Shown here one piece after another: positions 45,001 through 48,000 of a stretch of DNA of 64,000 bases. Made by a program: the position numbers. Origin of the DNA: an uncultured Verrucomicrobiae bacterium (GTDB taxonomy: Bacteria; Verrucomicrobiota; Verrucomicrobiia; Chthoniobacterales; UBA10450); NCBI GenBank assembly GCA_963726745.1, contig CAVSDR010000006.1, positions 416,001 through 480,000 of the forward strand, given 5' to 3'. The first letter of the stretch is position 1; every line of letters begins with the position of its first letter.

Positions 45001-48000
45001 CGTGGCCGCGCTCGAGCTGGCGATGAAAACAGGCGTCAAGATCATCGGCATCAGCGACGCCACCGTCGCGCTCTACAACCCCAAGGGCATCGATGTGCGC
45101 GCCGCCGAGCAGCACGTGATGAAGAAGGGCAACCTCCGCGCCTTCAACGAAGGCGACCGGATCGACCCAGCCGAGATGCTCATCCAGAAATGCGACATCC
45201 TCGTCCCTTCCGCGGTCGACCGCGTGATCCACGAGAAGAACGCCGGCCAGCTCCAGTGCCGCATTCTCGCCGAGGGCGCGAATGGTCCCACCACCCCGGA
45301 AGCCGATCTCATCCTGAACGAGAAATGGGACGAAGTTTTCGTCATCCCGGACATTCTCTGCAACGCCGGCGGCGTGATCGTGTCCTACTTCGAATGGGTC
45401 CAGGGCCTGCAGTCGTTCCTTTGGACCGAGAGCGAAGTAACCGACAAGCTCTTCCGCATTCTCGAGCATTCCTTCACCCAGGTGATCCGGCGCGCGAAAC
45501 AGGACAAGGTCTCGCATCGCACCGCGGCCATGGCCATCGGCGTCGAGCGGGTGATGAAGGCGAAGCACGCGCGCGGCCTCTTCCCTTAAGCCGCGATGAG
45601 CTTTTCGCATCGCGAGGAAAAGCGCGGCGATCGGCTCCTCGATGTTTTAACCGACGAGATCGCCGGCCTGCGGATCACGGTTTCGCGCCTCGGCGCGGAA
45701 CTGGTCAGCCTCGCGCGGCGCGACGCGGCGGGCGCATGGATTGGCTTCCTCCATCGCGACGATGACCTCGGCGCGCCGGCCCAGGGCTGGGCGAATCACG
45801 CCACCGTCATGGGCTACTTCCTCCATCGGTTGAAGGATGGCCGCAGCGTCTACCGCGGCGAGCCGATCGAAGGCGGCACGCACAGCTTCCTCCGCACCAA
45901 GGTCTGGCACCTCGCCGAACAAAATGCTGGCAAATTAACCTACCGGATCACGCCGGCGGATTACACCGCCACGGAGTATCCGCGAAAAGTCTCGCTGGAC
46001 CTGACCTACGCGCTCGAGGACGGCGCCGTCCGCACCAGCTTCCATTTCACCAATCACGAACCCGATCGCCCGGCGCACGTCGGGTTCGGACTGCATCCGG
46101 GCTTCGCGATCACGGAAGGCGGCAACTTCACCTTCCGGATGCCGCCCGGTCTTTACCGTCGGCATTTCTCGCCCACGAATTACCTTTCCGGCGAAACCGA
46201 AGACGTGCAGCACGCCGGCGGCGACATGCCCTTCGAGAAAACCAAGCTGGTCGGCTCTTACATCCTCGAGTTGGTGGATGTCCCGCAGCGCGACTTCGCC
46301 TTCGCCGATGGCGCCAGTGGCCGGCGGGTGGATTTCGACCTTCGCGAAGTGCCCTACCTGACCCTCTGGGCGGATAGCGCGGCCTTTCTTTGTGTCGAAC
46401 CCTGCTGGGGCCTGACCGATCACGACGCCCAGCGCACCTTCGAGCAGAAGGAAGGCATTCAGCTCATCCCCGCAGGCGGCAGCCTAACGAGAAGTTTCCG
46501 CATGACCCCGCAGCTCGCCTTCGCATGAAAAGGCCGGCTCTTTCCCTGCGCGCGCTCCTCGAGGGGGCGGTTGATTACGCCGGGCTCTTCCCGCCGGCCA
46601 GCCTCACGCTCGAGCCCGCGCTGCGGAATCACGCGGAGTATGTCCGCTCACCCGAGGCCTGGATGCTCGGCGCGTTCATCCTCCCAGTGGGCAAATTCGA
46701 GGAAGCTTCCGCGTTGCTCGGGCCCTTCGATGTCGAGCATCGCCTGCGCGTTTCCGCGCTTGGGCCGGCGACCGAGAATGCCAACGCCTTCATCGAAACT
46801 CTCGGCGCGCTGAATCAAACGATCGAAGGGTTCAACACCCGGCACGGCGCCACCGCCGCGGTCGTGCAGCTCGAGATGCCGCTTCCGGCGACCGACGGCG
46901 CCTCGCTCGCGGAGACGAACCGCGCGCTTTCCGGCCTGGAATTGCCGACCTACTGGGAACGCGCCGCCGACGAGGCCGAGCGCACCGTCGGCTTCATCGC
47001 GGAACGTCACACCACGGGCGCCGCGCGTTACGGCTTCAAGCTCCGCACCGGCGGCGTGGTTGCTTCCGCTTTCCCCTCCTCCATGCAGATCGCGCGTGCC
47101 CTCACCGCCGCGGCTCACCTGCGCGTGCCGATCAAGTTCACCGCCGGGCTGCATCATCCGGTGCGAAAATTTCACGAGAGCGTGCAGACAAAAATGCACG
47201 GCTTTCTCAACGTCTTCGGCGCCGGCGTGCTCGCGACGGAGCACCAATGGGACATCGTCCAGACCGCCGCGATGCTCGACGAGGAAGACCCGGCCTGCTT
47301 CCGCTTCACCGACGACACCTTCACCTGGCGCGACTGGACAATCAGCACTGAGCGCATCCAGCGCGCGCGCCGCTTTATCACCTCCTTCGGCAGTTGCTCC
47401 TTTGACGAACCGCGCGAAGACCTCCGGGCCCTCGATCTCCTCTAAAACACCATGCCGCTCCGTTCCTTCATTGATGTCGCACCTGATTCGCATTTCCCGC
47501 TGGAGAACCTGCCCTACGGCGTTTTTCGCCCGCAAGCCGGCGGCGAGCCGCGTGTGGGCGTGGCCTTGGGCGACCAGGTGGTCGACCTCGCGGCCCTGGA
47601 AGAGGCTGGCTATTTAGACAGCAAGATCTTCGCGCAGCCTTCGCTCAACGCCTTCCTCTCGTTAGGCCGCGCGGCCTGGCGGAAGACCCGCGCGACCCTG
47701 CAGCACTTGCTGGCGGCGGACACCGCCGAGCTGCGGGACCACGCGGAGCTGCGCCGCCGCGCCTTCCATCGCCAAAGCGAGGTGACCATGCTCCTGCCGG
47801 CGCGGATCGGCGATTACACCGACTTCTATTCCTCCTATCACCACGCGCACAACGTCGGCACGATGCTCCGCGGCGCGGACAACGCACTCATGCCAAACTG
47901 GAAATCGCTCCCCGTGGCCTACCACGGTCGCGCCAGCTCGGTCGTGCTCAGCGGCACCGACCTGCGCCGCCCGCGCGGCCAGATCAAGCCGCCGGACGCC

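Follow-up and report, generated by a model that had tools for sequence, protein, structure and literature searches.

We identified a protein family, here called X, that is probably a glutathione-independent maleylacetoacetate cis-trans isomerase (the EC 5.2.1.2 reaction), a predicted TIM barrel unrelated to GST-zeta; among candidates for this step in microbes without the glutathione-dependent enzyme, it is the strongest. The homogentisate pathway is the textbook route of tyrosine and phenylalanine breakdown, and its isomerase step is known only through GST-zeta, which depends on glutathione. Large sections of microbial diversity have the other genes of the pathway without making glutathione, and a glutathione-independent maleylacetoacetate isomerase activity was reportedly described in Gram-positive bacteria in the 1980s (in a paper of 1985). 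A full-text search of the literature returned no named gene for such an activity, and in the part of one review that treats maleylacetoacetate (PMC10950700), GST-zeta alone is mentioned. From gene order, gene fusions, co-occurrence, fold and conserved residues we infer a substrate and a reaction for X, and putative catalytic roles for its residues.

The X gene and its genomic context

The window analyzed here is a stretch of 64,000 nucleotides from an uncultured Verrucomicrobiae bacterium, and all coordinates refer to it. X is encoded on the forward strand (46525-47445) by an open reading frame of 306 codons without internal stop, whose translation ends in ...SFGSCSFDEPREDLRALDLL*. Its ATG shares the sequence ATGA (46525-46528) with the stop of the upstream gene, and its TAA stop (47443-47445) is followed, after a gap of 6 nt, by the ATG of the fumarylacetoacetase gene (FAH, fahA; 47452-48696, forward strand, 414 aa). 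Translation and junction sequence thus agree with an earlier survey of this genome, which had placed a 306-aa reading frame 6 nt before fahA. The downstream gene scores 620.6 bits against the TIGR01266 fumarylacetoacetase model (cut-off 375.3) and carries the Pfam domains FAA_hydrolase_N and FAA_hydrolase; judged by these matches, it is a true fumarylacetoacetase.

For comparison we used a set of 80 loci, one genome per species; it takes the 80 best from 596 confirmed matches to X and therefore favours close relatives. The gene upstream of X (45596-46528, forward strand, 310 aa) is weakly aldose-1-epimerase-like (Pfam Aldose_epim, 5.1e-10; no NCBIfam match), and its stop overlaps the X start. 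We considered this gene as a part of the system and rejected it, because homologues occur in only 10 of these 80 loci, all of them with the label Verrucomicrobiota, Chthoniobacterales or Udaeobacter; the gene is a neighbour specific to that lineage and lies outside the conserved core. Further upstream, ending 6 nt before the epimerase-like gene, lies a glutamate dehydrogenase-like gene (43904-45589, forward strand), in which the Pfam domains ELFV_dehydrog_N and ELFV_dehydrog begin at residue 177; the GTG start listed for it probably lies too far upstream. It is possibly the first gene of the same transcription unit, and glutamate dehydrogenase-like neighbours are found in 16 of the 80 loci (best 80 of 596). 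Our promoter and terminator scan was uninformative, with no terminator-like site found on the forward strand between 43904 and 48696.

The rest of the homogentisate route in the source genome is as the survey had described it: HPPD and an HGD-like gene (homogentisate dioxygenase) are present on another contig (C2); no maiA was found (using TIGR01262, an equivalog model with a cut-off of 171 bits, in all six frames of the whole genome), even at E<=10; and no match to glutathione synthetase was found. Only two open frames, 82 and 103 aa long, match GST_N_3.

A large family without annotation

X has no match in Pfam or NCBIfam at E<=0.1, in line with the claim that it belongs to no known domain family, and no consistent Pfam match was found among 101 diverse relatives. 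Its description as an orphan is nevertheless wrong. At 50% identity the family falls into at least 4,775 clusters, every one of them named “hypothetical”, and it is spread over many phyla, including Bacillota and one archaeon, so that X is not confined to Verrucomicrobiota; among relatives that carry names, every name is “hypothetical” or “uncharacterized”. In the ESM Atlas, the clusters nearest to X all carry the name “hypothetical protein” and lack a Pfam family, and the named clusters gave no usable match. Searches of the PDB sequences with the X sequence and with an X profile returned chance matches only (E >= 0.14), with no aldolase among them.

Gene order and gene fusions

The pairing of X with FAH extends far beyond the lineage of the source genome. 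The 80 loci (best 80 of 596) carry at least 12 phylum-level labels: Verrucomicrobiota, Chloroflexota, Bacillota, Bacteroidota/Rhodothermales, Ignavibacteriota and Planctomycetota, and in addition Calditrichota, Krumholzibacteriia, Armatimonadota, Eisenbacteria, Neomarinimicrobiota and a Poseidoniia archaeon. Within this set, an FAH homologue lies near X in 73 of the 80 loci by tblastn and in 72 by clustering of reading frames; by the latter method FAH is the immediate downstream gene in 67, which agrees with the arrangement that the survey had reported in relatives. Besides FAH, no neighbour of X is common to more than 16 of the 80. Of five genomes examined in which X has no FAH beside it, four have FAH at another place. 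The survey's finding had carried the worry that this linkage might reflect shared ancestry within one order; since Bacillota, Chloroflexota, Planctomycetota, Bacteroidota, Ignavibacteriota, an archaeon, and others keep the pair, that worry is removed.

Some loci contain more of the pathway. For example, the order HPPD-X-FAH-HGD is found in five Bacillota loci (L041, L044, L045, L055, and L060), HPPD-HGD-X-FAH in a Chloroflexi locus (L050) and in the archaeal locus (L071), and HGD-X-FAH in two loci (L037 and L048); in two others (L068 and L083), X and FAH are followed by acetoacetyl-CoA synthetase. Organisms in culture that have the order HPPD-X-FAH-HGD include Paenibacillus tianmuensis CGMCC 1.8946 and Alteribacillus persepolensis DSM 21632.

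X is also fused to other proteins. In P0273 (783 aa; seven member sequences on four contigs), X forms the N-terminal part (residues 4-336) and FAH the C-terminal part (TIGR01266 at residues 367-781, 619.8 bits), and seven more FAH-domain fusions of X were listed. Six fusions with acetoacetate-CoA ligase were listed as well; in P0286, for instance, the ligase model NF002937 matches residues 5-711 (822.6 bits) and X follows at 722-1031. Acetoacetate-CoA ligase acts at a step after FAH. Five further fusions join X to a CPBP/CAAX membrane protease domain, and these are left unexplained by the isomerase reading.

The ligase fusions, whose partner uses a product of FAH, also suit a different reading, in which X serves the lower homogentisate pathway at some other step than the cis-trans isomerisation: for example as a keto-enol tautomerase of the ring-cleavage product, as a Schiff-base enzyme acting on acetoacetate, or in the repair or detoxification of reactive by-products, of which maleylacetone and succinylacetoacetate are examples. 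We regard this as unlikely, although fold and distribution (see below) bear on it too. In the gene order, FAH directly follows X in 67 of the best 80 of 596 loci, and acetoacetyl-CoA synthetase is a neighbour in only three of them; the four-gene order HPPD-HGD-X-FAH matches the order of the reactions; and X is N-terminal to FAH in P0273, the one X-FAH fusion whose domain order was aligned. Moreover, the textbook pathway requires no extra step between FAH and the activation of acetoacetate.

Co-occurrence with FAH, HGD and maiA

We asked how X is distributed among genomes with and without FAH, using evenly drawn samples. In that of Bacteroidota (the phylum of G005), FAH was present in 112 of 301 genomes. 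Among the first 80 FAH-positive genomes of this sample, 38 contained X; judged by coordinates, X directly precedes FAH, in the same orientation, in 24 of these and lies within 3-4.3 kb of it in six; none of 80 FAH-negative Bacteroidota genomes contained X. In the class of G004 (labelled Bacilli), 11 of 301 genomes carried FAH, and 10 of these 11 had X, always directly upstream of FAH; in the phylum of G041 (a genome labelled Alcaligenaceae) FAH was found in 8 of 161 genomes, and X accompanied it in all eight. An HGD-like gene was present in 43 of 50 X-bearing genomes.

No maiA above the cut-off was found in any of the approximately 150 genomes searched: not in the 50 X-bearing genomes, the 80 FAH-positive Bacteroidota, the eight FAH-positive genomes of the G041 phylum, the 11 Bacilli, or four other FAH-positive Verrucomicrobiota. 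X-bearing genomes lack maiA, and the two never occur together here; this is the full extent to which X can be said to replace maiA. Neither X nor maiA was found in 42 of the 80 FAH-positive Bacteroidota, 3 of the 4 other FAH-positive Verrucomicrobiota, and 1 of the 11 FAH-positive Bacilli. The gap in the pathway alone therefore proves nothing about X, given the Bacteroidota and Verrucomicrobiota counts, and is a weak argument for its function when taken on its own. The many FAH-positive genomes without X would also fit an enzyme of another step, as in the alternative above; those with neither gene imply at least one further solution to the isomerase step, or a non-enzymatic bypass.

At 20 FAH loci from genomes without X and maiA, no alternative shared same-strand neighbour was found; their neighbours included SHMT, MiaE, TPR proteins, bacilliredoxin BrxC (two loci), and HGD and HPPD (four loci). 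In three Verrucomicrobiota, FAH has an N-terminal extension and adjoins a TonB-dependent receptor.

The survey's proposal that X is the missing isomerase of tyrosine breakdown is now much better founded than before: linkage across phyla, fusions, and the restriction of X to FAH-positive genomes of our sample speak for it, while the pathway gap on which it drew carries little weight and the picture of an orphan gene has been given up.

Fold and conserved residues

The AlphaFold2 model of X (pLDDT 96.1, pTM 0.93) is a single eight-stranded alpha/beta barrel, and we are confident that the predicted fold is a TIM barrel, as had been suggested; the fold searches agree with the model. Using VIA-align, the best structural match was the DERA entry 5c2x_A (Z 14.7, rmsd 3.9 Å, 225 aligned residues), followed by five more DERA entries (Z 14.3, 13.6, 13.6, 13.4, and 12.6), with generic sugar-isomerase and phosphodiesterase barrels at Z <=12. 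Sequence identity between X and its structural alignment partners is 9-16%, and Foldseek against the PDB returned generic TIM barrels only (TM 0.27-0.52). We also examined whether X is a homologue of DERA by sequence and rejected this: an alignment of 101 X sequences to 10 DERA sequences by hhalign gave a probability of 0.5% (E 0.11, 34 columns, misaligned), indicating no homology, and the profile search of the PDB found no aldolase.

Conservation was assessed in 101 X sequences sharing 36-57% identity, in which 22 columns are invariant. In the model, the invariant polar residues all lie at or just after the C-terminal ends of predicted strands, and the predicted catalytic face is lined by Lys172, Arg174, Lys204, His210/His211, and Cys291 (all invariant except His211, which is at least 90% conserved). 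Three segments contribute these residues. On predicted strand beta6 (residues 169-174; motif G-F-K-L-R-x-G-G), Lys172, Arg174, Gly176, and Gly177 are invariant, with the Lys172-Leu-Arg174 codons at 47038-47046 (forward strand). Predicted strand beta7 (residues 203-206) and the loop after it contain the motif K-x-T-A-G-L-H-H-P (Lys204-Pro212, codons at 47134-47160, forward strand), in which Lys204, Thr206, Gly208, and His210 are invariant, and His211 and Pro212 are at least 90% conserved. The third segment, at the end of predicted strand beta8 (residues 285-290), reads S-F-G-S-C-S-F-D-E-P (Ser287-Pro296, codons at 47383-47412, forward strand). Here Gly289 and Cys291 (codon 47395-47397) are invariant, the cysteine in 101 of 101 sequences, and Ser290, Ser292, Phe293, Glu295, and Pro296 reach 90% conservation or more; the G-S-C-S-F-(D)-E-P motif that had been noted around this cysteine is therefore real. 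The same invariant residues are found in X from Bacillota, Chloroflexota, Planctomycetota, Bacteroidota, Verrucomicrobiota, and the Poseidoniia archaeon.

Two invariant lysines on predicted strands beta6 and beta7, together with class I Schiff-base DERA aldolases as the nearest folds (Z 12.6-14.7), would suit the other-step enzyme considered above, for example one acting on acetoacetate through a Schiff base; the absence of DERA homology in hhalign argues against it.

A divergent subfamily of X has a threonine or serine in place of Cys291, and has lost His210/His211 together with it; Arg174 and Asp17 are missing as well, while Lys172 is kept. Members of this subfamily are no longer linked to FAH, yet they persist in FAH-positive genomes, and this counts against the isomerase reading. 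Because Cys291 is strictly invariant in the 101 sequences and is lost together with the histidine pair in the unlinked subfamily, it looks catalytic; from what is conserved, though, Lys172/Lys204 and His210/His211 are equally candidates for a part in catalysis.

The persistence of such degenerate proteins in FAH-positive genomes could also mean that X is not an enzyme at all, but a stabiliser of FAH, a scaffold, a regulator, or just a companion gene of fahA, and the X-FAH fusions would suit a structural partner too. We consider this very improbable: 22 invariant columns at 36-57% identity, with the polar ones clustered on the predicted catalytic face of a TIM barrel, are typical of an enzyme, and a gene pair kept across bacteria and an archaeon argues against hitch-hiking. 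A complex prediction for FAH and X (score 0.00, mark 0.32) says nothing for or against binding.

Proposed mechanism and significance

As a maleylacetoacetate isomerase, X would be the third enzyme of a glutathione-independent homogentisate pathway. The short-type HGD would make 4-maleylacetoacetate, which X would convert, passing 4-fumarylacetoacetate to the FAH encoded 6 nt downstream. At the C-terminal face of the barrel, invariant basic residues (Lys172, Arg174, Lys204, His210/His211, and Arg282) may hold the dianionic diketo-acid in place. The thiolate of Cys291 would then add to C2 of the enone, as does the thiolate of glutathione in GST-zeta or a cysteine in maleate isomerase; the C2-C3 bond would turn, and the thiol would leave. 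Activation of the C4 carbonyl, through a hydrogen bond or as an iminium, may fall to one of the two lysines, which are placed on beta6 and beta7 like those of class I aldolases. That X works free of cofactors, through its own cysteine, is what we infer from conservation in the sequences.

The thiol might instead be a diffusible one of low molecular weight (bacillithiol, cysteine, CoA, mycothiol, or similar) bound in the barrel, with Cys291 in a structural or secondary role. All of the context evidence for the isomerase fits such an enzyme equally well, the basic pocket could hold a thiol cofactor as readily as the substrate, and in the sister gentisate pathway mycothiol or L-cysteine serves those isomerases that are not of the GST type. 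However, the same invariant residues recur in lineages that are not known to share one low-molecular-weight thiol, and the cysteine at the end of beta8, strictly invariant (101/101) and lost with the histidine pair in the unlinked subfamily, has the appearance of a catalytic residue; we thus give little credence to a diffusible thiol.

The isomerase acting through its own cysteine can be taken further, and we do so only tentatively. It is possible that X founds a new cofactor-free family, with a covalent Cys291 adduct and help from a lysine or iminium on an aldolase-like TIM barrel; that it is the gene behind the Gram-positive activity of the 1980s; that tyrosine catabolism in Bacillota, Chloroflexota, Planctomycetota, Verrucomicrobiota, part of Bacteroidota, and some archaea relies on it as the common solution; and that the X-FAH fusions hand over the reactive intermediate directly. 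If X is the isomerase, a gap in annotation and metabolic models would be closed for thousands of genomes, a name would be available for a family that counts at least 4,775 clusters and is covered by neither Pfam nor NCBIfam, and EC 5.2.1.2 would have a second, non-homologous solution, possibly with a new TIM-barrel mechanism. The old orphan activity would then be testable in cultured carriers of X, such as Paenibacillus, Alteribacillus, Sporosarcina, and Salinivenus.

Comparison with known systems

MaiA/GST-zeta (GSTZ1; TIGR01262; EC 5.2.1.2) occupies the place proposed for X in the pathway, between HGD and FAH, and the reaction and chemistry proposed for X (thiolate addition to the enone, rotation, and elimination) are the same. 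The proteins themselves share no sequence likeness: MaiA consists of a thioredoxin-like N-terminal and a helical C-terminal GST domain and depends on glutathione, whereas X is a predicted TIM barrel without GST Pfam domains, from a genome without a match to glutathione synthetase.

DERA is the best structural match of X, and both proteins have lysines on beta6 and beta7; in DERA, we take the Schiff-base lysine to be the one on beta6 and the second lysine to be on beta7. The invariant Lys172 and Lys204 of X lie on the predicted strands 169-174 and 203-206, a likeness of strand position rather than of residue-level alignment. The corresponding motifs of DERA are F-I-K-T-S-T-G and K-P-A-G-G; X has His-His and Cys motifs of its own.

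A cofactor-free precedent is maleate cis-trans isomerase (EC 5.2.1.1; Asp/Glu racemase superfamily), where a cysteine of the protein forms a covalent adduct at the double bond; this cysteine adduct is the mechanism proposed for Cys291. That enzyme has another fold, another substrate, and two catalytic cysteines, whereas X is a predicted barrel with a single invariant cysteine; the Asp/Glu racemase family is absent from the listed fold matches of X, and none of our searches indicated a relationship.

Gram-positive bacteria without glutathione use the mycothiol-dependent MDMPI/DinB type or the L-cysteine-dependent BagL in the gentisate pathway. These enzymes adopt a helical, DinB-like fold and require a metal as well as an external thiol, and neither X nor its 101 relatives contain such a Pfam domain. 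As maleylpyruvate isomerases, MDMPI/DinB and BagL nevertheless provide the analogous case to that proposed for X: the replacement of a GST-type isomerase by an unrelated, glutathione-independent protein.

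An unannotated family upstream of fumarylacetoacetase

The gene that we call X (window 46525-47445, forward strand) is an intact ORF of 306 codons ending in TAA, and six bases past this stop lies the ATG of a 414-aa fumarylacetoacetase (FAH; 620.6 bits on TIGR01266 against a cut-off of 375.3, with the Pfam domains FAA_hydrolase_N and FAA_hydrolase). X itself has no match in Pfam or NCBIfam at E ≤ 0.1, and the survey's description of the sequence (the ORF, the 6-nt gap to a true FAH, and the lack of a Pfam match) was correct. It had also called X an orphan, which does not hold: 7,979 clusters at 90% identity match X in a word-indexed search (8,000 candidates scored), and in an exhaustive HMMER search, for which each 50% cluster was reduced to one sequence, 4,775 proteins passed E ≤ 0.001 and 1,479 of them E ≤ 1e-30. 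The source names seen for these relatives are all "hypothetical" or "uncharacterized" (for example, that of a Sporosarcina soli RefSeq protein), and 101 representatives sharing 36-57% identity with X gave no meaningful Pfam match (19 families, one member each, all with E of at least 0.002); thus, X represents a large family without annotation.

The start codon of X shares bases with the TGA of the upstream gene (an ATGA overlap), which is weakly aldose-1-epimerase-like according to Pfam and is itself preceded by a glutamate dehydrogenase-like gene (43904-45589, forward strand); no terminator-like sites were found on the forward strand between these two genes. Read as its longest ORF (561 aa from a GTG), the glutamate dehydrogenase-like gene overlaps a convergent Cys/Met-PLP enzyme gene (43044-44198, reverse strand) by about 295 nt. 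Since its Pfam domains start only at residue 177 and its relatives are 431 aa long, this GTG probably lies too far upstream, the true start being some 130 codons further 3′.

Homogentisate pathway genes in the host genome

The window's own genome is 94.7% complete, and as the survey had reported, it shows neither maiA (the GST-zeta maleylacetoacetate isomerase, TIGR01262; no match at E ≤ 10) nor a glutathione synthetase gene; GST_N_3 has two matches only, both glutaredoxin-sized. The two earlier enzymes, HPPD (381 bits) and homogentisate dioxygenase (HGD), are present, as the survey had stated, but they are two genes rather than the single g00054: a one-base frameshift interrupts the HPPD gene near position 7,774 of contig C2 (pair at C2:6815-9094, outside the window), 36 codons before its end. 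The last 36 codons (…FFEIIQRKGAKSFGKGNF…) follow in a different frame, and the shifted frame runs without a stop into the HGD ORF, making the pair look like one gene of 845 aa, which explains why the survey had a single gene for both. The cause is an indel introduced in assembly or, alternatively, a genuine lesion in the enzyme that opens the pathway. The murJ gene (window 41441-43034, forward strand) is likewise broken: one ORF (41441-42259) covers MurJ profile positions 1-144, and a second, which overlaps it in a different frame (42063-43034), covers positions 169-436, although MurJ is one 533-aa protein in relatives; as this is the second apparent frameshift in the assembly, indel errors are likely.

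The HGD-like gene (C2:7910-9094, 394 aa) scores 64 bits on TIGR01015, against a cut-off of 510.75. Of 50 X-bearing genomes, 43 carry the same short type, with open frames of about 385-400 aa and 27-76 bits, always short of the cut-off; the NCBI equivalog model therefore leaves this type of HGD unnamed.

Gene order and fusion proteins

Scanning one genome per species for X confirmed 596 matches. The analysis used the best 80 loci among them, a choice that favours closer relatives. Their record titles include Verrucomicrobiota/Chthoniobacterales, Chloroflexota (Anaerolineales, Roseiflexaceae, and Caldilineales), Bacillota (Alteribacillus, two Paenibacillus, Bacillus sp. J33, and one MAG), Rhodothermales/Salinivenus/Balneolaceae, Ignavibacteriota, Planctomycetota, Calditrichaceae, Krumholzibacteriia, Armatimonadota, Eisenbacteria, Neomarinimicrobiota, and one Poseidoniia archaeon. 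Among these best 80 of 596, FAH is present in 73 loci by tblastn (72 by ORF clustering), and in 67 it is the very next gene 3′ of X (ORF clustering), so the link in gene order noted in the survey extends over many phyla. Two of the seven loci without an FAH match stop within about 125 nt past X; of the remaining five genomes, four carry FAH at another site, which in two is on the same contig about 10-12 kb further downstream. The remaining neighbours are lineage-specific (most commonly glutamate dehydrogenase, in 16 of 80 loci; the epimerase-like gene is found in 10), and the informative ones are pathway genes: a short HGD-like cupin in 10 of the 80, an HPPD-like gene in seven, and acetoacetyl-CoA synthetase in three. 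The order is HPPD-X-FAH-HGD in five Bacillota loci, HPPD-HGD-X-FAH in one Chloroflexi locus and the archaeal locus, HGD-X-FAH in two loci, and X-FAH-synthetase in two.

X also occurs within longer proteins (23 matches), eight of which have FAH domains. For example, P0273, an X-FAH fusion of 783 aa with seven member sequences on four contigs, contains X at residues 4-336 with all motifs intact, followed by TIGR01266 at 367-781 (619.8 bits). One match has a short fragment of X beside HGD domains, and another has FAH and glyoxalase domains together. Six of the 23 join acetoacetate-CoA ligase to X (in P0286, NF002937 at residues 5-711, 822.6 bits, then X at 722-1031), and five (P0274-P0278, 545-617 aa) have an N-terminal CPBP/CAAX membrane protease domain followed by a complete X with all motifs. 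The ligase and protease fusions are not predicted if X is an isomerase, and count against that reading; the protease fusions are explained by no reading of X. A different activity in the lower pathway, such as a tautomerase or an enzyme directed at acetoacetate or side products, is an unlikely alternative, to be weighed with the ligase fusions on one side and the position of X between HGD and FAH on the other.

Co-occurrence with FAH and maiA

Genomes were sampled evenly; since kin are not independent, the numbers below should be read as counts rather than statistics. In the phylum of G005 (a genome titled Rhodothermales), FAH (TIGR01266) was found in 112 of 301 genomes; among the first 80 of these, to which the counts of X and maiA are confined (the other 32 being left out), 38 have X and none has maiA over the cut-off. 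In the class of G004 (Bacilli), 11 of 301 genomes have FAH, 10 of the 11 have X, always directly upstream of FAH, and none has maiA over the cut-off. In the phylum of G041, FAH was found in eight of 161 genomes (all eight among the 160 further genomes sampled); X is present in all eight, four times adjacent to FAH, and maiA passes the cut-off in none. In the window's own phylum, FAH is found in five of 151 genomes including the window's own; X is present in one of the other four, and maiA over the cut-off in none. No phylum that makes glutathione is among these four samples in which the absence of maiA was counted. Similarly, maiA over the cut-off was found in none of 50 X-bearing genomes from the best 80 loci, with weak GST-like matches in four. 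X was absent from all 80 FAH-negative genomes in the G005 sample (60 of them picked by inference from the sample numbering). G041 itself, titled Alcaligenaceae, has X (locus L059) without FAH; this MAG may be mislabelled or wrongly binned.

By coordinates, the 38 X matches in the phylum of G005 fall into 24 immediately 5′ of FAH and co-directional with it, six at 3-4.3 kb from it (about 3 kb in the three inspected), one on another contig, and seven that are low-scoring and unlinked. A Pfam scan of one locus, L141, placed a secreted protease gene between X and FAH.

The pathway gap that the survey had relied on is no proof of function alone: neither X nor maiA is present in 42 of 80 FAH-positive genomes from the phylum of G005, in three of four from the window's phylum, and in one of 11 Bacilli, so the step can be bypassed or otherwise filled. 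One more isomerase, a bypass mediated by a thiol, or direct hydrolysis may serve the 42 genomes; 20 inspected loci from the phylum of G005 showed no alternative shared neighbour of FAH, and four of them have HGD and HPPD beside it. A gene for the monothiol bacilliredoxin BrxC is near FAH in two of the 20. Three FAHs from Verrucomicrobiota family f6 (L084-L086) are N-terminally extended (open frames 447-473 aa long) and adjoin a TonB-dependent receptor in genomes with neither X nor maiA; they may be used outside the tyrosine pathway.

Predicted fold and conserved residues

AlphaFold2, run on the alignment of 101 X sequences, gave a very confident model of eight beta-alpha units (mean pLDDT 96.1, pTM 0.93), predicted to be a TIM barrel of aldolase-like shape. 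Foldseek returned generic TIM barrels only (TM 0.27-0.52); in an exhaustive VIA-align search, the top six matches were deoxyribose-phosphate aldolase (DERA) entries (Z 14.7, 14.3, 13.6, 13.6, 13.4, and 12.6), with barrels of other kinds, sugar isomerase/epimerase and phosphodiesterase among them, scoring Z 12 or less. Although DERA is the best match in shape, profile-profile comparison with a DERA alignment from the window's genome and its relatives found no homology (probability 0.5%), and X fits recognisably into no described family.

The invariant polar residues are D17, Y18, E145, K172, R174, K204, T206, H210, R282, and C291; E117, H211, R214, H225, N229, E295, and D299 are conserved in at least 90% of the sequences. 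In the model, the conserved polar residues lie at or just past the C-terminal ends of strands (beta1, residues 16-18; beta4, 111-119; beta5, 142-145; beta6, 169-174; beta7, 203-206; beta8, 285-290), which is the catalytic face of TIM barrels. Set beside these residues, a role of X as a non-catalytic partner of FAH, which the adjacency and fusions would also suit, appears very improbable. An isomerase dependent on a diffusible thiol would suit the same genomic context; with an invariant cysteine in X itself, we consider this unlikely.

The seven low-scoring matches (L130-L136; 158-182 bits) share about 25% identity with X and are in FAH-positive genomes, all unlinked to FAH by coordinates; neighbours in the three loci scanned (L130, L134, and L136) include HU-like DNA-binding and secreted-protein genes. 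The two aligned, L130 and L134, keep K172 and K204, but D17 is replaced by N, R174 by D or K, and Cys291 by Thr or Ser, and His210/His211 are gone. This joint loss suggests, from sequence, that Cys291 and the His pair act together; the divergent subfamily may consist of pseudoenzymes or serve a new function. All canonical residues are retained in L137 and L140, unlinked copies from the phylum of G041.

Discussion

The functional link between the X family and the homogentisate pathway is real and strongly supported. In the textbook pathway, HGD and FAH are separated by a single step, in which maleylacetoacetate is isomerised from cis to trans. Because X lies between HGD and FAH in gene order, is fused N-terminally to FAH, was confined to FAH-positive genomes in the sample tested, and is carried by genomes in which the GST-zeta enzyme is missing, this genomic context makes X a candidate, and somewhat probable, glutathione-independent maleylacetoacetate isomerase; isomerisation is plausible as its specific function.

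The passages on maleylacetoacetate in one review name GST-zeta alone (PMC10950700). Our full-text literature search, mostly outside subscription journals, found no gene assigned to a glutathione-independent maleylacetoacetate isomerase, and prior publication is possible. Such an activity was reportedly described in Gram-positive bacteria by Hagedorn and Chapman in the Journal of Bacteriology in 1985; if so, X is a candidate for that orphan activity.

As for the mechanism, the basic pocket of X would hold the dicarboxylate, Cys291 would serve as the Michael donor, and a lysine might assist. The role of Cys291 is proposed by analogy with two known enzymes. In GST-zeta the Michael donor is the thiolate of glutathione, whereas X would use its own Cys291; in maleate isomerase the donor is a cysteine of the enzyme, and Cys291 may act in the same role in X.
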